In this document: piece after piece, positions 25,650 through 38,478 of the stretch | Position numbering within the stretch: position 1 is the stretch's first letter | Layout: every line of letters begins with the position of its first letter | NCBI GenBank assembly: GCA_976226885.1 | Contig: OZ320315.1 | Span: 86,738,001 to 86,802,000 of the forward strand | Origin: Iphione sp. A-MEVVRFRX5 | Lineage: Eukaryota | Reading direction: 5' to 3' | DNA: 64,000 nt | Notes under the pieces: model-generated | Database searches by the model: none | What the model saw: only the letters and a program-made list of their open reading frames with translations | Told to the model about the DNA's origin: nothing | Made by a program: the position numbers and the translations under genes

Positions 25650-26035
25650 TGAGAAAATATTCGAGATATTGATGATCGAATATCGTATTATACATTAAGG
25701 TTAATAACTGATTTATATGTTTTCTCATTTTTTAAGCCAAAACGATCTACGACTACACAACATGGAAGGAAGGCACAGTTGGAGATGATGAGACCTAAGC
25801 TGAGAATCATACAGGATAGCTTTGTATATAATGGAATCAGGAGATGGAATGATCTGCCTGATGATGTTTTGAATATGCCATATTTGCTTATTAAATCATA
25901 TTTAAAAAACAATACATGGTCATGGAGAGATCAGCCAAAATAAAGATCTGCTGTGAAAGGCTGAGCACTTAGTTGTAAGACATCTGGTATCAGATGGTAC
26001 TTTTTGCTCAATAAAATTGTTTGAATTGAAAAAAT
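25650..26035 (+). mobile_element. CR1/L2-type LINE 3' end
   Basis: The + frame RPKLRIIQDSFVYNGIRRWNDLPDDV matches the 'SFxYxGxxxWNxLP' ORF2 terminus, followed by a short UTR with AATAAA. Confidence 0.6.
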
Positions 26036-26039
26036 TGAA

Positions 26040-26940
26040 AAAATGTGTGTGGCTTAGTGAGTAGCTGTTCGCAGACAATGCTGCCTTAACTGCACACACT
26101 GAGGACACACTACAATGTCTCGTCACCTGCCTGGCACACGCAAGTGATGAATTTGGCCTAACCATCAGCATCAAGAAGACCAACATCTTGGGTCCAGATG
26201 TCAGCACTACCCCATGCATATCTATTGGAGCACACACCCTTGAGGTGATAGAGGACTTCACCTACCTTGGCTCCACCATCTCCAGCAACCTCTCCCTAGA
26301 CCCTGAGCTAAACATCTGGATTGGTAAGGCATCATGGTCCTTATACTCTTGCCAAGAGCATAGACTCAACATTTTTCATCTGCGCTGTCTAAGGAGGATT
26401 TTGGGTATCACCTGGCAGGACCATATCCCAAACAAGGATGTGCTGGCAAAAGCAAAAATACCAAGCATGCATGCCCTTCTCTTGCAGAGACATCTATGCT
26501 GGCTTGGTCATGTCATACATGTGCAGGATGGCTGAATCCCCAAGGACATCTTGTATAGTGAGCTTGCCCATGGTTCAAGGCCCACTGGCAGGCCAGCCCT
26601 GTGATTCAAAGATGTCTGCAAGCATGATCTGAAGGTCGGAAACATCCACCCAACTGACCTTGAAACTACAGCTGCTGATCGCAGTGCCTAGAGACATGCT
26701 GTTAGGACCAGTGTTGAGTTGAGTGAGAGGAAGAGAGAAGGCAACTGGAAAGTAAAGAGAGATCACAGGCAACAGAGAGTATGATCACAGGTCTCAGAGA
26801 CAGTTGCAGACTTTGCCTGCAGTAACTGCAACAAACTTTGCCACTCAAAAATAGGCCTGTACAGCCACAGCAGGTGCTGTTATACAGACTAGCCAAGGCG
26901 CAAATCCCCCCATTGTCTCTCGAACCAGATGGATGCCAAC
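26040..26940 (+). mobile_element. 5'-truncated, decayed RTE-clade LINE
   Basis: LFADNAAL, GLTISIKKT, FTYLGSTIS, RCLRRILGITWQD, WLGHV, IPKDILYSEL...RPTGRP, and a C-terminal CxxCx12HxxxC-like finger (CSNCNKLCHSKIGLYSHSRC). Several stops and an internal deletion. Confidence 0.85.
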
Positions 26941-29900
26941 CAGTGAGTAACATTATCAATGACTGCAAATGCTGATTTCTGCACAGAAACTTGTGTTAAC
27001 ACAAAAAACATAAATGTGTATATGTATAATATATACAACTTTCAGCAATAACTAGCCAGCAACTTTTTTTTTTTATATAGGCACAAGCCATTTATTTCTG
27101 AAGTCATGGTACAATATTAAAATCGTGCTTTTGGGTGTTTTAACAGTTATAACAAGAAGAGAAAACAACAACAAGGCAAGCAGCATTAAGAATCCTGAAG
27201 TACCATATTCCATAGTTTGATAGATTTCTTATTATCCAAATTATATGCCAAGGCCAGTTCTTGTCTAGCTAACTGCTTTTTTTAAAAATTTTTTTTTCAA
27301 ATAGGTGTCTCACCCTTTATTTCTGAGGTGTGTGTACAGAATCACTTTCTTTGATGCTTTTTGTATTTTAAAGATAACAAATAGAGAAGAAACATTAAAC
27401 AGTAACATCAATATGTTGTAGAAGGAACCTGAGGTCTTGCCATTTCCTTTTTTGCTTTGTTGAACTTTTGTTTATACAATGACTTGTCCTTAAGTTGACC
27501 TGGTTTTTAAATTCACTTTTGAAGACAGTGAAGGGTAATTCTCCATGGTAAAAAAGTTTCCTTTTGTATATATAGAATTTGGCTAATAGAAGAGTGAAAT
27601 TTAAAATACTTCTCACTGGGAAGGGATCTTGTACACCTAGGAGCAGCTCTTTATCTGTGAGGCGAGTGATGTCAATGTTATACACAGAATACCACCAACT
27701 GAAGAGCTGTTCCCAAAAAACTCTAGTGGGGGGACATGTAATCAAGAAGTGTAGTACAGTATCAACATTGTTTGATATGTTACAATGAAAACATCGATCT
27801 GATTGTGCTATTTGTAAAAAGTGTAGATAGGAGTTACACGGTATTATATTATAGATTACTCTTACAGCAAAACTTTGCAGTTTTGTAGAAATACAGCAGT
27901 CATATGGATTTCTAAAAATTGTTCTCCAAGTATACTGATCATCAATGAGGTCTGGGATGAGAGCCTGTAATCTATGTTTACATGGTGCAGTGTAACCGGC
28001 TAGTCTGATAGTGAGATCATATATCTGATTCGTAGACAGTTTAACAATATCTACAACATTGTCAATGTCCTCCAAGAAGATCTTGTGAAGGTCCTCCGGA
28101 TTGATGCATTGATCTTCAAATTGAACCTTATAGTAATTTGGAATACTTTCTAACAGGCACTCATATTCTTTTTCTGTCAATACTAGACTAAATTTTTGTT
28201 TAAATTCCTGGATGGTGAAGATATTACCATCAAGTCTAAAAGATGACCTAGCTGTAAGCAACCCTGAGGTTTGAGTATTGTATGAAACTTACATAATATA
28301 GCTTGATCAAGATAATCATTAATCCAGAGTGGCTCAGTGTAGATACCTAATTTAGTAACTGGTATGTACATATAGAACTTCTTCCAGACCTTACAAAGAT
28401 CTTTGTAAAAAGGATTTTGAACTCTCGTTAAGGAACCATTTGATTTGTCTTTAAAGAATTTCTTAATGTCTATTGCTCCTAGAGCTTGTTGTGCCAGGCA
28501 GAGCCAGGGCATTTTAGAACCATATTCTGTCATATGACATATTAACCATATTCGTGTGGCATAATACCTATGAAGTATTGATGCCAGGTTCATTCCACCC
28601 TGTGTTATAGGGAGATATAATGCAGATCTGGCTATCTTTGCCTTCTTTCCATCCCATAAAAACTGATTTACTATTTTATTATATATTCATCTATCACCTT
28701 GGAACAAAGTGGTAAATTTGTGAGAGCATATTGAATAAGGGGTAGTACTAGAGTATTCAATATGATAATCTTTCCCTTGAGAGAGAGTTCCTGTGCCTTC
28801 CATTTATTAAGTATATTTTGTCCCAATTGTAATCTTGGTTTAAAATTATGAAGATAATTAAAATTGGAGTCTTTGGTATTTGTATAGACAATTCCCAGAA
28901 TTTTGATGGAGGACTGAAAATTTATATTCTTGTTGAGAGTACTTGGATCAAAAGTGCCAAAGGCAAGTCCTGTTGTTTTTTGATAATTCACTGTAATTCC
29001 AGTGGCTATCTGGAAACTGTCCAGAATAGAGAAGACTGTATTGACATCTTTTGCTGAGGAGGCAAAGACAACTAAGTCGTCTGCATATTGACAATACTTG
29101 AATCTTTCTCCCTTGATTAGAATACCATTAAAATTATTATTGTGACAAAAGATGTGACCTAATACTTCTGAAACGAGTATGAATAAAAGTGGTGATAAAG
29201 GGCATCCTTGTCTAACTCCCTTTTTCATATGGAAAAAGGAGGTGGTGTAACCATTATTACAGACACAGGATTCTGCATTTTGATAGAGTAGTTTCACCAT
29301 ATGACAGAATCTGTCACCAAAACCAAATTGCTTAAGGATGTGTAACATAGATGGCCACTGTATGGAATCAAAGGCTTTTTTTAAGTTAATACCAATCATT
29401 GCCCCTGACCCTTTCATTGCTATGAGGTGCCACTGAATGTCCGAAATGAGATGATGATTGTCACTTATTGAACGATTTCTTATGTATCCTGTTTGTCTCA
29501 CTGAGATGAGTGAGTCTATGCAAGTTCTTAATCTATTGGCAAGTATCAAGGCTATTATTTTATAATCTAGATTTAGAAGGGAGATTGGACGCCAGTTCAT
29601 AATGTCTTGTAACTCTTGTTGGGGTTTAGGGAGGAGTGTAATAACAGCTCTGTTGAATGAAGGTGAGGTGTTTTCTAAAGAATGAAGATTTTCAAATGCC
29701 AAGTAGAAATAATTTTTGAGAGTGGGCCAGAAAGTCTTATAGAATTCAGTTGATAGGCCATCCAGACTGGGGGCTTTATTTAGGTGCATTTGGCTGAGTG
29801 CCTCGTTGATTTCTGATTAAGAAAGAGGTTGCTCCAAAAGGGTATTTATTTCTGTGGTAATTTTGGGGAGAGGGGGGGTGTAGTGTTTGCAGCAGATCTG

Positions 29901-30879
29901 GGATGGGAGTATCAGCAAAACCATCCCCAGCATATAATGTTTGATAGAAGCCAAGATTACGTGTCAAGATTTCCTTATTTTTATACAGTATAACACCATG
30001 TTCATCCTTTAGTGTTGAAATAGTTTTTGCTTTCATTTTGCTTTTTTCCATATTGAGAAAATATTTCGAAGGCTTCTCCCCATAGGCTAACCATTTTGCT
30101 TTAGACCGAAATATGGCCCCTGCTGCCTTTCTATATTCTAGATCTAATAGCTGTGTTTTAACTTTTTCTAGTTCATTAGTAATGTCTTGAGAAGTATTTG
30201 GTTGATAATCTATTTTTTCCTGAAGATCCGAAAGTTGATGTGTCAAAAAATTCTCTAAAAGTTGTGTCTTTTTTGCTTGAGATTTGGAGTATTGTATTGT
30301 GACTTCCTTATTTTTGAATTTGATATATTCCCATTTACTCAAGTGAGATAAAGTGGTTGCTTGGTCAGCCCAATGAGGAATCCCTTCCTTGATTAACTCT
30401 ACATATTCAGGGTCCTCTAACAGTAAATTGTTAACTTTCCAGTGACCTGGTCCTTTACGTGTACCAGCTATCAACAACGTTGCTTGTACAAGACTATGGT
30501 CTGAAAGGACCCCAGGAATAATCGTACTTGTCAGGACACTAGGGTAGGCCTACAGATCCGGCGATACAAGAATGAAATCTATACGTGAGGCAGCTTTTCT
30601 GTTGTGCCAGGAATAACGTCTGGATAAGGGGTGACTTCTTCTCCATACATCTACAAATTCTGTGACATTTAGAAAATCTAAGAAGGCTTGGTGGGGTTTC
30701 TTTTGTAGGCCTCGTCTAGAAGTGTATCCAGTGTTTCATCTATTACCGAGTTGAAATCACCCCCTAAAATCCAAGACTCCCTCTGGGCCTGTGTAATCAG
30801 ATTTGTCACATCATCAAAAAGTGCCCTTTGGCTGTCTACATGATTTGCAGTAGATGCATATATAGACAGTAGATTATAT

Positions 30880-31124
30880 TGTTACGTTGTTTACCGCTTC
30901 TCAAACTCATGACGCCAAGAACACAGAGGTAAGTTGAAAAGATGTTTATTCCAACAGAACTGGTCTTAAACTGAGCCACCCCCCATCTCCTGCTCACCCT
31001 TATATAATGTTACTGAGGAGCTTTCACGTACAGATGCACTCGCACAATCACCAACGCACGACCACAACCTCGCACAACCAAGCTCGCACACTCTCATCAC
31101 AATCACCACTGCACGCGCGCAACA
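30880..31124 (-). repeat. 3' LTR (245 bp)
   Basis: Direct repeat of 39881-40125 with TG..CA termini. The PPT AAGAAGGGGGAAG (31125-31137, -) abuts it. Confidence 0.97.
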
Positions 31125-31939
31125 CTTCCCCCTTCTTAGTTTCTACCGTCTCGGTAGAACAACAACACTGAACAACAGGTCTGCACTTGCTCAGACTAAC
31201 TTCTAGTAGAAATCCATTCAACAGGAATGGCAGATGAAATATAACCGCACAGTACAGTGCAGGACTTAGAAGAGTTACTGGAGTAAGGTTGCCAGAACAT
31301 GCATGAGGAAACATCCGTTCCAACTACAATCTTACAGTAGCATTTCCAATATGGAAGATAAACATCAACTTGTAGCCCAAGTACATGAGCTTACTGGCCT
31401 ACAGTGGCCCAAGGAGAGAAGATGGAACATATTCCATACAAAACTAACAAGTCCTTATCTCTTCTTTTATCTTATGTAAGGTCAAAATCCACTCGGATCC
31501 CCAGTACAGGGGAAACTTAGTCTGGTTACCTCCACACATCACAGGACACCACAACACTACTGAAAATAAAACAGTGCAAAAGGCACCGGAGCTGAGCTCT
31601 ACACATTACAGGACAACACAACAGAGATCACGCCAACATTCCAAGTACCTCACCAACTAGGGCAACATGGTAACAAGCCTAGAGCTAAGCTCAACAACTC
31701 CTTAGCCTAAACACTTGAGGCAAATTTACATGCTTCTATAAGTTTAGCTAGGTTTACACACAACATGGATCTTGAAGAATGAGCATGATACAATGCCAAG
31801 ACGTGGTCTGCTAATCAGAGCCACGGCCAAGGGGGACCCAGCAGTCTGGTCTACGACTCTCCCCTCAGAGAAAATTAACAAAACTACCTCCCGGAGCGGA
31901 AGGAAAACAACCCATAAGGGGTCGAGAGAATAATCCCTA

Positions 31940-34130
31940 TTACTTATCTAGAAGATACTCGAACTCCTCTGACATGGTGAAAACCCGCATGTTCGGGCCA
32001 TCGCTAGTATGTCCCCACTGTTCTTTGACCAACCTGGGCTGACGACCCTCCAACATGGCAGACCGTTCGTAATACCAAACGCGTACGCCAAGGATAGTCC
32101 CCGCGTCTCCTCGCTTCAGGGTCATAGACTGCTCCACGGTAAGTGTCACTACCCACCCTTCGACCCTGGTACTGGTAAGTCCCTCTGTTTCTTGGATTAG
32201 CCAGCCTGGTGGAGGCGCAACATCGGGGGTAACCAACCTGGCCGTCTGCCAAAGAATGAGGAGTTGGGGTACCACGGTGGGCTCCCCAGAAATGGTGAAG
32301 CGCTCACTCTTTTTGTTGACTTGTACCAGCAGTCCGGCTTCTTCCCCAGGGTCCAAGTCTGTACCTAGGTTGGTACCTTTTCTTGGACTTCGTAGTCCCT
32401 CGGCCCGGGGACACACAGGTGACCCTTGGGGAGTAATCCGGGGTCGCACAGGTGACCCTTGGGGGGGTAATCCGGGCCACCAGATCGCGCCGATCCACGG
32501 GTTTCTCCGTCGTTGGTCCTCCTGGCCTGGAAGGCGTTCCATGGGGCAGCGCAGGGGGAGCCGCACCCGCATCCACGATGATGGTGATGTCGCTGTCACC
32601 GTTCGGTTCCATCTCCTCTGCAGTCTTGACCACAAACTCTTGCCCCGGTAAGAGGGCTACCCCGTCACAAATGAACTCCTGGTCCTTCCCCGACACCCGG
32701 ATCTCTTTACTGGGTACGCCGTAGTCCAGGCGTGGGGTCTGGGCCACAGTCTCAGTGGTGAGCCCTTTGGATGGGTTGCTGGCCTCGACTTCTGATGCTG
32801 ACGAGATGTCCTCGTATACCGGGGCCTGCACAGTGACCACCGGAGAAGAAGCGGGCGCCCGTCGGGTCTGTGTGTGAGGAGGTCGCATGTCCGGCTCACG
32901 GAATTCTCCAGCAGGTGTCGTACCGGTCACAGCAGTTCCCGCTCCCATCGGGGTTGAGGTGGAGACCGCAGGGGGAACTGACATGTCCCGGCGTCCCCCA
33001 CTGGAAGACACCTGGTCCCCATGCCCAACCCCTTCGTCCAACTCCATGAGGCAGGTCTGGTCGGGGTCAGTTCTTTCAACTCCTGAGGTCACCCGCACGT
33101 CTCCACTTCCGGGAGCCATCGTTCCCTGACCTGCGACTGACTGCGTGTGCAACTGTCCCACGTCCCCAGTGGTAGTGGTCACGGTTACCACTGTGTCGGT
33201 CACTGTCGTCGTCGTCGGGCCCGAATCCAAGCCCGATAACCCTTGAAGATTTCCAAGTCCTGCCAGGAATTCGGAAGGGCTCCAATCTGAGTCGGCCGGG
33301 GACCACGCGATCACCTTCTTTGGCGGAGCCCCACCCTCGTCATTTGAGATGAGGATAACACTAGTCTTCTTCTTTCCTCTAGGTCCCAGGGAGGAGTCGG
33401 AGGACGACGATCCAGGTGTGGCTCCACTGGAGGAGTCGCCCACCCGTAGTTGCCCGATGCGCAGAGGAGGGAGTGCCTTTTCTGACTTCCGACGGGAAGC
33501 GAGTCCTTTACCCTTGGTCACTTTTCGTACGGCCGTATCCGAACTAGGCACCCGTCGCACCGGCGGACCCGCCTCGCTGCGGCTCCCGTCCTTGCTCCTC
33601 TGGGGAACAGCTACCCCTGAGGGGCCTGGGACCGGCTGAGCCACGGGGGTGGGAGCCATCCCCTCACCGGAGGGCCCCGGCATAGGAGCAGGAGAGGGCC
33701 CAGGCGTCAGGGGGGGCGGCACACGAGTAGCCCCCGAATCTCCTGTCTCCCGCCTTTGGCGTGCCTCCTCTTCCATCTCGGCCCGCTCTTTCCGCCGCTT
33801 CTTGGCCTCCATGATGAGCTGGTACTGGTATTCTTCCTCCAGTTCAGCGGGCATACGTTGAGGGTAACCCCGCGTTGGGTTTGAGCCCTCAAACATCAGA
33901 TATTCGATGTCGATTTTCTGCCCTAACTCCAGGCCGTGATGAACCAGGCGGAGATGGCGTACCAGGTCGGATCGTCGATGGAAAGCTTGACTCCGGCAGG
34001 TGGGCGTGGGGCACCGGCGCCCAAACCCCACGATCTCATGCTTCTCTTCAATATGTTTAAGTAGGCGATACTTGTTGGGGAAGGCCCGGTCGCAATACTG
34101 GCACTCCCACTTCGCTTTGGTTGACGACAT
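31940..34130 (-). CDS. Gypsy accessory ORF3 (~729 aa after removing 1 nt in the G7 run at 32461-32467): two C2H2 fingers, charged helix, disordered P/S/T region, unknown C-terminal domain
   Basis: MSSTKAKWECQYCDRAFPNKYRLLKHIEEKH (Cx2Cx12Hx4H) and CPTPTCRSQAFHRRSDLVRHLRLVH (Cx4Cx13Hx4H). It combines track ORFs 32304..35096 and 31940..32635. The correction turns a 33-bp DNA repeat into a clean RITPQGSPV x2 peptide repeat. Confidence 0.75.
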
Positions 34131-34899
34131 ACTGGCGCTGGGGAGATGCGAAACAGGCCCGCACGAGTCGCTCACAGAAGCGGTGGATGTCCGCAATGGA
34201 AACTCGCACGACTGGTCTCCAGGAGCGGTCAACCCGCAGGGTGCGATCTTTCCACGTGCGCGAAGCTGGTCGGAGAACCCTCGCACAGGTGCGGTAGTGG
34301 TTGCACTGGCCGGCCCCAGAGCGAGTTCGGTAGTGCGGTGGTGCCCTGCAGCGACAAGGGGTAATTCAATAATCGCTCGATCACCGTAATCCCAATCGAA
34401 CGATCTTCCCCCCAATCCAAAATTCCCCGCATGAAATCGATCCAAATGCCAGCCAACATGATCCAAACAGTTACTCACGAGGATAGTCCAGCAAATTCCG
34501 CGCAGGGGAGGCCGTTTCTCATCAGAAATCAAGTTAATCCTTCGTAGCGACGCTAATCGGCACTTTCCTCCATCAGATTTCGGTTCCTCCAGCGTCCTTC
34601 CAGGAGGCGCCTTAGTCGCGTGCTCCTGATAGTGCGTTCGTTCCTCACTAGAGGGCGACTCTGTTCGATCGCTATCGCACGCACTACGTGCGAGGCTCGT
34701 TCTTTCAGGTGGCGCTCCACTCGTGCGCTCTTGGTCGTGTGCGCACTTTCCGCTAGGTGGCGACTCGCTCCTGTGCCAGCTATCCTCGCATGACTCGTGC
34801 CCGCCTTCCGCGCATGAACATCGGCCGACGGAGTTCTCAGCCAAGCGCAGTCTCCTTATCACCGCCAGACTTTCTGCCGATTCCTGATCTTCTACTTCA

Positions 34900-37800
34900 G
34901 TGGGAGCATCCAAGATTGCCTTCTTCAAGAGATCACCATGGACTATTTTTGTAGTCCTGCCTTTCTTGATGCGGAAGACCACCAGAGACAGTTGCTGGTC
35001 AATAATCCAGGGGCCGGTCCACCAGCGCTCCAGCTTGGGTGAGCGACCGGGCTTTTTTACAGGCTGAAACAGCCACACTGATTGCCCGTCCTCCAACTTT
35101 TGAGGATGGACCCGGTTATCATACCAGTCAGCTTGCCTTTTTTGCCACTTTCTTCAATTGTTGGGCCACCCCTCGGTACGCCGACTGTGCCCGCTGGTGT
35201 AAGTCCTGTGCATAGAGGGGGAGGTCAAGATCCTCTCTTTCTGGGCCCCCATACATCACCTCCACCGGAAGCCTGGTTTCACGCTGCGTCATCAGCCAGT
35301 TCGGAGTGTGACCAGTACTTGCATGGGGGGTAGCTCTATAGGCGGCCATGACGAAGGGAAGCTGCAAATCCCACTCTTCTTGGGCACGGTTACAAGATGT
35401 GGCGATCATCCCCAAAAGAGTACGATTCATACGCTCCACCACCCCATCTGCTTGCGGGTGATAGGGAGTGGTGTGGGTCTTCTGAACTCCCAGCAACCGT
35501 AGAACCTCCACGACCAGGCTGCTTTCAAAATTCCTTCCCTGATCTGAATGGAGGGTACGCGGTGGTCCAAATCTGCAGATCACTTCTCTGACTAATACCT
35601 CCGCGGTAGCCGTCGCCGTCAGTTCCTTCAATGGAAATGCTTCTCCCCACTTCGTGAAGTGGTCCATTACAACCAAGACATAGCGGTTGTCATGCTCAGT
35701 ACGAGGCAAGGGACCCAACACGTCCACTGACACCAGCGACCAGGGCTCCGATGCTCCTCTGCTTTGTAGTGGCGAACGGCGAAGAGCCCCTGGTGACTTT
35801 CGCTGCTGGCACTCCGGGCAACTCTGGCCCCAGCAAGAGATGTCACGTCGCTGTCCAGGCCAAAAGTACCGAAGTCGCAGCACCCCTAGGGTCTTCTCTA
35901 TGACCAAGTGGCCCCCCAGAGGCCTAGCATGAGTAGCACTCCACACCTTCCGACGCAAGACTCTGGGCACATAACACTGCCTCAGCGACCGCCCATCCTC
36001 CAGCTCCCACCTGCGAATGAGTTTCCCCTGGTCCAGCTCCAACCGACCCACTTCCAAACAGAGCTTCCTCTCTTCCCATGTAGACTCTGGCAAAGGGTGG
36101 GGAGCCTCCCCTTCCCCTTTTTCCGACCAGTCCAGCAACTGAGCCGGAAGAGCTTCGGCTCGAGTCTCCACCTCGATTCCCAGGCGATCATCATGGCTTC
36201 GTAACTCCAGCCGGTGGACTTGTTCTGGATGGTTACCTTCCTCCATTCGCCCACATTGACGACATGTAACTCGAGAAAGAGCGTCTGCATTTCCGTGTTT
36301 TCGGCCAGGGCGGTGCACGATCTTGAAATTATAGCAAAACACCTCCTCCAGCCATCGGGCTAGTTGGCCTTCGGGTTCCTTGAACTGACATAACCACTTG
36401 AGAGAGTCATGGTCGGTACGTATGACTACCGGCTGCAAGCCCAAGTAATGGCGGAACCGGCGTAGGGCCCATACCACAGCGAGGAGTTCCCGACGAGTAA
36501 CACAATAGTTCCTCTCGGCCTTGTTCAATCCCCAGCTGGCATAGGCGATAACCCGTTCTTCTCCTTCTTGTTCCTGACTCAATACTGCACCAACCCCAAC
36601 TAGGGAGGCGTCTGTGTCAAGCCACAACTCTCCCTCACTCTGTGGGTACGCCAACACCGGAGCAGAAGTGAGACGATTCTTCAGCTCTTCGAAGGACTGT
36701 TCGCATTCCGATGACCAGCGGAATTCCACACCCTTCTCAGTAAGGGAAATCAGTGGGGATGCGATATCCGCGAATCCCCGAACGAAGCTGCGGTAGTAGG
36801 ATGCCAAACCCACAAAACTTCTGACTTCAGTCACGCATCTGGGGGTAGGCCAGTCCCTTATGGCTTGTGTCTTCTGAGGATCTGCCGCAATTCCCTTCTC
36901 CGAAACCATATGGCCCCGGTAACGCACCTCTTCCTGGCAAAGTTGACACTTTGAAGGCTTAATCCGGAGACCGGCGTCCGAGAGCCGCTGAAACACTAAC
37001 TCCAGATTACGACAGGAGTCCTGAATATCATTCCCCAAGACTATCACATCGTCGAGATACACCAAACATTTGTCTCCCACAACGCCCCGAAGGATGGCCT
37101 CCATTAGCCTCTCAAACGTGGATGGGGCGTTGCAGAGCCCAAATGGTATAATTCTAAATTGAAATAGTCCTTCCAAGGTGCTGACCGCGGTCTTCTCCCG
37201 GTCTTCTGGGTGGACTCCAACCTGCCAATAACCGCTGGCTAAGTCCAGGGCGGAAAAGAACCGCGCTCCCTGTAAGGCATCGAGGGTATCATCGATACGC
37301 GGGAGCGGGTACGCGTCCTTCTTGGTACACTTGTTCAGTTGTCTGTAGTCCACACAGAAACGCACACCTCCATCTTTCTTGCGCACCAGGAGTGCTGGGG
37401 ACGCCCACGGACTCACCGAAGCCTCTATCACCCCTTGTTCTAGCATCTTCTCGATCTCCTGCTGCATAAGAGACCGCTTGTTGCGATGAACTCGATGTGC
37501 CCGTTGACGAATAGGGGGGTGTCCCTGCGTATCAATGCGGTGGGTAATCAGCTCCGTGTGTCCGGGTGTACTGGAGGCCGTCTGAAGAATAGTGCTAAAC
37601 TTCTCCAATAAGCGTCGCACTAAGTCCTCCTCTTCCGGTTGTAGAGTCGAGGGGAGCGTAGCCATCAGGCGACCAATAGCCTCTTGGCGTTCTTGCTGTA
37701 GACCCATCTCCTCCACTTCCGACGTCTCACAGGGGGTAACTGCGCAAGCCGTCCCAATACACGTTCCGGAATAGACCTTGAGGGGATCCTCACCAGGGTT

Positions 37801-38478
37801 CCATACCGGGACCCTAGGCTCAGTCATCTTCGGGTCCAAGACGGCAGGTAGCAGTCGCAGTCCCGTACGCCCCTCGAAGCCAATCCCGGGTTCCACTAGG
37901 GTAAGACCTGCATCAACGGTCCCCGGTAAATTCACGGTCAACACCTGCTGGCTGCGCCCTGGGATGACACTGGTTTCCCTCACCGACACCTTTCCAACCT
38001 CCCCGGGGAGTGCAATCTCCACCCGGCCCGTGTTGGTATGGACCGTAGCTCCCCATGCCTCCAAGGTATCTAGCCCTAGTAGTCCATCGGCCTCGATATG
38101 CCCTACGCGGGCGGACACTGGTAGCCACAACTCGTTGAACCGAACCATCAAACGGGCGATTCCTTGCACCTCCAAGGGCTGTCCATCAGCGCAGAGGACT
38201 CGTCCTCGAGAGGGAGACAAGGGCACTTTCTTGAGTCCTTCGTAAATTCGCGAGGCCAACACCGTCACCGAGGCTCCAGTGTCGATCAGCCAACGTACCT
38301 CCACTTCCTGGATGAGGCTCGTCAACACCCAACCTTTCTCGGAGGTTCCCCACGAAGCTTGCAGTGCACAGTTGACCGGAGAAGCCAGCTGAACCGCAGC
38401 TAGCTGCTCCGGCCAGTCCTCTTCGGGCTGGCTCTCCGCCCGCCCTACTGTTCCAGGGCGGGCGGGTTGCCGTTTCCC
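34900..38478 (-). CDS. pol: Gypsy pol (protease, RT, RNase H, integrase); 1-nt frameshift in the A6 run at 35148-35153
   Basis: LIDTGAS, WASPALLVRKKDGGVRFCVDYRQLN, YLDD, DTDAS, HHCC zinc finger, D-D-E core (SVDVLGP, HSDQG, VERMNRTL). The GPY/F-like tail KLERWWTGPW...HGDLLK continues in the +1 frame. Confidence 0.95.
38436..38478 (-). promoter_or_regulatory. -1 programmed ribosomal frameshift signal (gag-pol)
   Basis: Slippery G GGA AAC (38472-38478), 6-nt spacer, then a perfect 11-bp stem CCGCCCGCCCT / AGGGCGGGCGG with an 8-nt loop (38436-38465). pol is in the -1 frame relative to gag. Confidence 0.9.

Follow-up and report, generated by a model that had tools for sequence, protein, structure and literature searches.

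The window analysed here, a stretch of 64,000 nucleotides from Iphione sp. A-MEVVRFRX5 (GenBank assembly GCA_976226885.1, contig OZ320315.1, positions 86,738,001 to 86,802,000 of the forward strand), contains a Gypsy long terminal repeat (LTR) retrotransposon of 9,246 bp (30880-40125, minus strand) that carries, at the env position and in frame with its integrase (IN), an open reading frame (ORF3) with two C2H2 zinc fingers. Zinc-finger genes are usually cast as a host weapon against retroelements; here an element appears to carry a finger protein of its own together with its own sites. The reading that the sequences somewhat favour is that ORF3 is a self-encoded, sequence-specific regulator, which likely binds the clustered GCG-words of its own element and keeps the element's own promoters active or unsilenced. 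A wider proposal, that a whole animal Gypsy clade has replaced env with a self-encoded zinc-finger factor, with sites in two promoters, a feedback loop, family-wise coevolution and carriage in Gag-Pol to protect insertions from methylation, is put forward more tentatively, as possible rather than probable.

Conservation of the finger frame

Past the end of integrase at 34917 the frame of the window copy stays open for 262 codons, up to a methionine at 34130 just ahead of the fingers, in agreement with the ~260 codons of a preliminary description made from this copy alone. The parts that it had named, the tandem C2H2 pair with RRSDLVRH, the basic runs AKKRRKER and PRGKKK, the PGPS and YEDIS motifs and a C-terminal domain (32350-31943), were all located, with the disordered part measuring about 470 aa and not the ~350 aa first given. 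The features of this region are as follows, the labels of the short motifs in the disordered part being ones that we presume to apply.

34131..34916, minus strand: in-frame linker, CpG-rich, with weak protein constraint
33760..34130, minus strand: start of ORF3 (Met 34130), fingers, conserved extension and basic helix
34103-34038, minus strand: C2H2 finger 1
34013-33939, minus strand: C2H2 finger 2, with the helix RRSDLVRH
33806-33783, minus strand: basic helix AKKRRKER
32351..33759, minus strand: disordered region rich in P, S and T, with a frame break near 32467 in the window copy
33383-33366, minus strand: PRGKKK
33362-33339, minus strand: SIM-like motif
33284-33255, minus strand: W.P.EFLA.L
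32816-32799, minus strand: YEDIS
32477-32463, minus strand: ARITP
31940..32350, minus strand: conserved C-terminal domain, rich in beta structure and outside known families, followed by the stop

The window copy is itself broken, with an in-frame stop in gag (38886-38888), which the preliminary description does not mention, and frame breaks of 1 nt at two places (near 35143 and near 32467). The suggestion that two 1-nt corrections would restore a single frame of ~2180 codons is borne out by other copies, which carry a natural frame of ~2,190 codons. A DNA search with the finger region, in which 40 of 109 candidates were scored, retrieved 39 copies besides that of the window, which are mostly full length, and in 12 of the 39 the frame is unbroken from protease to C-terminal domain (2,185-2,197 aa). 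As the region is kept in these sister copies it is not the one-off capture that had been allowed for. The window family (family A) is young, since 21 of the 35 copies scored have 0-1 LTR mismatches.

Two further families, B and C, which were chosen for their long open frames and have 50-57% identity in the finger block, have the same layout, with linkers that are unrelated in sequence and 207-356 codons long. If base composition alone were at work, a linker would be open with a probability of 2e-5 to 2e-3 (7/7 copies tested in the three families). Within the family A linker no stop is common to two copies, one frame-shifting gap is common to two, and lesions occur at rates like those of pol.

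Pairwise comparison of unbroken copies (n=12, 8 and 4 for A, B and C) gave dN/dS values of 0.02, 0.14 and 0.07 for the finger block and 0.11, 0.16 and 0.04 for the C-terminal domain, with 0.19-0.33 for the disordered part and 0.61, 0.68 and 0.60 for the linker, where dS is below that of pol. The fingers and the C-terminal domain are under strong purifying selection and the linker is nearly free, which rules out neutral evolution of the fingers. The switch in constraint coincides with the methionine just before finger 1. This ATG is found in 38/38 recognisable family A copies (of 40), and a methionine lies 4-35 aa ahead of finger 1 in 13/13 families, a single copy of family C (L048) lacking it. 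The pattern suggests that a protein in its own right follows a cis-acting region that is kept free of stops. P0001 and two members of its cluster (P0154, P0156) end right after integrase yet nest within the clade, so the fusion of integrase to ORF3 is not obligatory; with these close relatives and the methionine in all families, that one copy excepted, the fusion is probably not the sole route by which the finger protein is produced.

Two other arrangements were considered and dropped. A splice acceptor just before the ORF3 methionine is seen in the window copy, is absent from 12/12 unbroken family A copies, and none is common to the families; no overlapping frame in the linker is open throughout in 7/7 copies, the longest open stretch being 212 codons. 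In families H, I and E' (L087, L079, L070, L082), and only there, the linker holds a conserved block of ~100 aa that starts PP.WYR, with pN/pS of 0.27-0.38 within H and I, and this block is evidence that the in-frame linker is translated in these three families.

Clustered words and the finger helices

The C2H2 ligands are invariant in 13/13 aligned rows, as are the base-contact residues of finger 2 (R at -1, D at +3, R at +6), with 27-56% identity among the rows. In finger 1 the contact positions are canonical in families E-I, atypical in A and acidic in M. The canonical linker between C2H2 fingers is of the TGEKP type, and that of ORF3 is of a GFGR type. The ORF3 fingers would thus pass for classical DNA-binding C2H2 fingers by their ligands, modelled fold and base-contact residues, but not by the linker between them. 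The finger model (pLDDT 76) gave no match with E below 0.001 in fold databases, DNA-binding fingers being the nearest but weak (E 2e-3 or worse), and its atlas search led to generic C2H2 clusters, in the same way as the finger profile found generic multi-finger proteins among the 150 matches listed from 1.84 billion representatives. Pfam matched Integrase_p58_C and zf-C2H2 in 35153-32307 (E 1e-3, under the curated cut-off). Protein database searches with ORF3 (334-1,064 aa) and with the finger alignment (222-2,000 aa) returned nothing, a weak negative since the integrase search later yielded P0067, a relative with like fingers. The C-terminal domain (pLDDT 56) is closest to phage neck proteins (best Z 8.0, rmsd 4.0, 103 aligned), with no E below 0.001 among viral folds, no useful Pfam or PDB sequence match and atlas values below 0.9, and it is assigned to no fold.

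Putative targets of the fingers are words that cluster in U3, the 5' part of gag and the linker. In families A, B and C both U3 and linker are CpG-rich and GTGCG ranks first of all 5-mers in both, at counts reached by 0/300 shuffles, with no excess in pol or ORF3 of A and C. The sites are on both strands, which fits a target of double-stranded DNA. In the window copy they lie as follows.

40028, 40042, 40056, 40072, 40086, 40111: six GTGCG sites in U3 of the 5' LTR
40001-40008: TATA box of the 5' LTR
39563-39759: ten GTGCG sites in the 5' part of gag
34131-34900: 14 GTGCG sites in the linker, on both strands

In the code table of PMC5260015 the helix RSDDLVR is assigned GCG, RSDNLVR GAG and KRERLDR, with R at +3, GGG. 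By this table the invariant R/D/R of finger 2 reads GCG. Finger 1 has the form R..N..R, for which the code gives GAG, in families E, E', F, G, H and I, and all six have clusters of GCGGAG in U3 and linker (0/100 shuffles each). Families B and C, with R at +3 in finger 1, have clusters of GCGGGG (0-1/200 shuffles), whilst J, with Q at -1, has GCGGCA, two of the three bases being as coded. A score for the best word shared between U3 and the stretch after integrase, from which family O, represented without an LTR pair, was excluded, is 3.9-10.3 in 8/11 finger families and 1.0-2.7 in four finger-less control families, three of them with env; L118, for which no LTR was found, was excluded from the controls. 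Among the K families, in which the finger ORF stands apart from pol, 4/5 have a word of their own, different from that of the in-frame families, which the LTR has in common with the gap ahead of the finger ORF. Columns of the family A linker that fall in sites also have fewer shared variants (8/84 against 156/706, p 0.006).

There are several respects in which the words weigh against a simple reading by the fingers. The J helix predicts GAA where GCA is observed, N has Q at -1 yet carries GCGGAG, I carries GCGGGG besides GCGGAG, and M keeps a GCG-type finger 2 with a U3 rich in GTGCA (11) against GTGCG (1). Family A has only the GTGCG core without a fixed 3' triplet. The families are related, so that the match of helix to word amounts to about two to three independent helix changes, and for E-I it was not made blind, the LTRs having been seen before the helices. 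The conservation of site columns, which had been delimited on these very copies, falls short of significance in the LTR and, once CpG and non-CpG columns are taken apart, in the linker as well (p 0.075 each). The shared-word scores of F, G and M are only 1.2-2.8, which in F and G is because GCGGAG also fills pol (22-24 sites). The match between words and finger helices holds in most families and is partial. The preliminary description had listed a transactivator or an anti-silencing factor among the roles of the module, and these options gain real weight from the word clusters, which largely match the helices, three families (J, M and N) fitting in part.

Some of these families deserve a separate remark. 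In pol of F and G (L083, L069), 14 of 21-22 of the GCGGAG words are in one strand and codon phase. Family M (L116, L121, L130) combines an acidic finger-1 helix with a U3 rich in the CpG-free GTGCA, and a change of strategy is possible. L093, at one time taken as a family with a changed helix, was dropped as a lone decayed copy.

The linker may be an internal promoter or enhancer. In 6/13 families the linker has a TATA box and, 17-21 nt upstream of it, a site; this is found in pol or ORF3 of 0/10 tested, and in E, E' and I sites stand on both flanks of the box. Against this, TATA[AT]A is missing from the linker of 7/13 families (A, B, C, J, M, N and O), and a TATA word after integrase is also found in 3/4 control families, so that TATA alone means little. 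In the family A linker, changes confined to one copy are 3-8 times as frequent at CpG, which is what host methylation of inserted copies would be expected to leave.

The element in the window and its relatives

By its LTR features, and by gag and the order protease (PR), reverse transcriptase (RT), RNase H and IN with a GPY/F-type tail, the window element is a Ty3/Gypsy LTR retrotransposon. Pfam matched PR, RT, RNase H and IN in 38499-35131. There is no Baculo_F match to ORF3 in Pfam, as would be looked for in an env-bearing errantivirus type (the control ORF3s match it in 3/3), and no chromodomain after integrase among Pfam matches down to E 1, as would be looked for in a chromovirus. Its remaining features are these.

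40126-40129 and 30876-30879: ATAT target duplication
39881..40125, minus strand: 5' LTR, 245 nt, TG...CA ends
39862..39879, minus strand: primer-binding site, complement of the tRNA-Leu 3' end
38445..39911, minus strand: gag with CCHC knuckle (Pfam), start codon within the 5' LTR
38472..38478, minus strand: GGGAAAC, a heptamer of slippery type where gag and pol overlap, with a -1 frameshift predicted
34917..38499, minus strand: pol, with a frame break near 35143 in the window copy
31125..31939, minus strand: 3' non-coding region, no ORF above 70 aa
31125-31139: polypurine tract
30880..31124, minus strand: 3' LTR, 245 nt, 4 mismatches against the 5' LTR

The complement of the primer site is carried by host tRNA-Leu genes at 3/4 loci scanned. 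Slippery sites for -1 frameshifting follow a heptamer rule, and the GGGAAAC heptamer is present in 6/10 families. The start of gag inside the 5' LTR, with a frame that runs across the primer site (39911-39860 in the window), is the same in 10/10 families checked. The element is inserted within the endonuclease part of an L1/Tx1-like long interspersed nuclear element (LINE; 27395-30879 and 40126-40500, with RVT_1 and zf-RVT matches, the type being judged by eye), and a fragment resembling another LINE reverse transcriptase lies at 25920-26535 on the plus strand.

The genome holds 1,533 exact junctions of the tRNA-Leu primer site. Of 40 junctions hand-picked from the first 100 listed, 37 belong to elements with a two-finger ORF, 28 that match the finger profile and 9 with a different, free-standing two-finger ORF (the K group), the remaining 3 being truncated, deleted or rearranged. 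A further 20 loci, chosen by frame length from 150 integrase matches, supplied families M, N and O as well as controls, and 13 match the finger profile. In an RT tree of 33 rows (one of the 34 intended was not extracted), none of them a named reference element, the in-frame families form a clade (support 100), P0067 is its sister (100) and K branches next (93). The nearest integrase relatives are mostly without a name; the best 120 of the protein database have tails with a median of 126 aa, and in five the tail has C2H2 fingers, with P0067 (2,315 aa) showing the same two-finger geometry (E 7e-6 among the 120). The finger module is clade-wide in the source genome, is also found in other samples and is not special to the window family, and the clade that hosts it is abundant and young.

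The K group (L074, L090, L095, L096, L097) consists of elements of 10.6-12.3 kb in which a separate two-finger ORF lies 2-3.4 kb after pol. Their C-terminal domain is a different one, their LTRs contain tandem repeats, and the gap has long stretches of A. Homology of the K finger module to the in-frame one was considered and dropped, the comparison giving a probability of 14%. P0100, P0109, P0110 and P0112, from other samples, form a separate Gypsy clade whose in-frame C2H2 tails behind integrase are of another kind and may have been captured independently. Three young Gypsy families of the same genome (L111, L113, L114) have an env of the baculovirus F type.

Possible roles and comparison with known regulators

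If ORF3 is a regulator of its own element, the linker would act as an internal promoter from which free ORF3 protein is made from its own methionine, closing a positive feedback loop. The basic helix would carry the protein into the nucleus, where finger 2 would read GCG and finger 1 the next triplet, and short motifs of the disordered region (presumably SIM-like, [YF]EDIS and W.P.EFLA.L) might, with the C-terminal domain, recruit host cofactors. Bound in this way ORF3 could sustain transcription or shield it against CpG methylation. The open linker frame and the predicted -1 frameshift would in addition allow a form borne on Gag-Pol, which could be packaged and reach new copies.

The same site evidence would serve a protein that represses, with ORF3 limiting its own copy number by recruiting SUMO or corepressor complexes. 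In E, E' and I there are sites to either side of the TATA box, sites extend into gag, and what we take to be SIM-like runs occur in A, B, C, E, E' and M and an [YF]EDIS motif in A, B and C. A self-limiting role is nevertheless unlikely given the abundance and youth of the clade noted above (1,533 junctions; 21/35 family A copies with 0-1 LTR mismatches), and sites upstream of ORF3 fit either sign. A little less likely again is that the words are sites for a host transcription factor, with the element's fingers binding something else or merely competing. Homotypic clusters of host-factor sites are common in LTRs, and the code accounts only in part for M, N and J; yet finger-less families of the same genome are without such clusters, the A/B/C and E-I groups differ in their word as they do in finger 1, and GCG followed by GAG is the exact code reading of the helices of six families. 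The basic runs and the S/T-P sites would suit an RNA-handling factor that binds or exports genomic RNA in the manner of CERV of Cer1, a role made quite improbable by sites on both strands and in U3, by the invariant R/D/R at DNA-contact positions and by fold neighbours that are DNA-binding fingers, weak as those matches are. That the module is a captured host gene or a neutral passenger, for which the broken state of the window copy might speak, has next to no probability and is refuted by purifying selection and clade-wide conservation.

The preliminary description had also raised an integration-targeting tether, in which ORF3 fused to IN would steer or import the pre-integration complex. The frame kept open through unrelated linkers of differing length, with no shared stop in that of family A, speaks for such a role, and ORF3 might act as an escort that binds the LTR ends of the element's own cDNA. 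On the other side stands family E' (L063, L067, L082, L085), a non-autonomous family of 6.3 kb with gag and, in one frame at the position of pol, protease and the finger ORF. Without RT, RNase H or IN it has spread to 4 copies with LTRs 95-99.5% alike, and its ORF3 is under selection (finger pN/pS 0.09-0.19 in 6/6 pairs). Its LTR is nearly that of E and its ORF3 far diverged (dS about 1.2), which suggests a mosaic. That E' has lost RT and IN and keeps ORF3 under selection disfavours the tether, as do insertion flanks with no excess of sites (10 in 20,322 nt against 49 in 48,001), plain 4-bp RTAY target duplications in 28/34, which the unfused K elements share, and the relatives P0001, P0154 and P0156 that end right after IN. 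The tether or escort is, by a shade, even more improbable than RNA handling.

A regulator of this kind would bear on how LTR retrotransposons evade silencing in animal germlines. With ~1,500 related junctions in one genome the factor could also alter the control of host genes that lie close to its sites, and a dozen natural finger pairs with predicted cognate words make a ready matrix of cross-family specificity. A search of full-text literature, with subscription papers and libraries of the Repbase type outside it, found no description of a Gypsy-encoded C2H2 regulator with sites of its own, and within that scope the architecture is not an already described feature of a clade, a possibility that the preliminary description had kept in view.

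Amongst known systems the foamy-virus protein Tas (Bel1) has response elements that vary by lineage, both in U3 and ahead of an internal promoter with a TATA box, and acts in positive feedback (PMC3798896). The likeness lies in a regulator encoded by a retroelement near its 3' end and in the same words in U3 and upstream of the regulator ORF, which here is no more than a pattern in the sequence. The Tas gene comes after env in a retrovirus, whereas ORF3 has C2H2 fingers at the env position of a Ty3/Gypsy element, in frame with pol, with short multi-copy sites. No similarity to Tas is found among the Pfam or fold matches listed, and the C2H2 architecture makes membership unlikely. VANC of the Arabidopsis VANDAL transposons is an anti-silencing protein whose short motifs are densely arrayed and differ from one family to the next (PMC5735166), and such dense family-specific arrays are also found here; VANDALs are DNA transposons of plants with motifs mainly in non-coding DNA, whereas in this LTR retrotransposon the motifs fall partly inside open frames (the 5' part of gag, the linker and, in F and G, pol) and are readable by the finger code.

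The position of ORF3, between pol and LTR and in frame with the polyprotein, is also that of CERV of Cer1 in C. elegans, which is made from a spliced message, contains a Cys loop of the C4 type and serves in RNA export (PMC10309623). No C2H2 pair or array of DNA sites for CERV is given in the part of that source consulted, and no conserved splice acceptor is found here. The Spm TnpA and Mu transposase regulators activate their cognate copies in a sequence-specific manner (bioRxiv 10.64898/2026.08.24.746577), they differ in being transposase-derived and in belonging to DNA transposons. Other extra ORFs at the env position of LTR retrotransposons, such as the GDSL and DEDDy ORFs of rotifers (PMC5408684; review PMC6431247; also PMC2774666), encode enzymes or membrane proteins, and the words 'zinc finger' and 'C2H2' are absent from the main text of PMC5408684. 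By analogy the finger ORF3 would work like Tas and VANC and sits like CERV, probably belonging to none of them, and it would carry the principle of the first two over to simple LTR retrotransposons.

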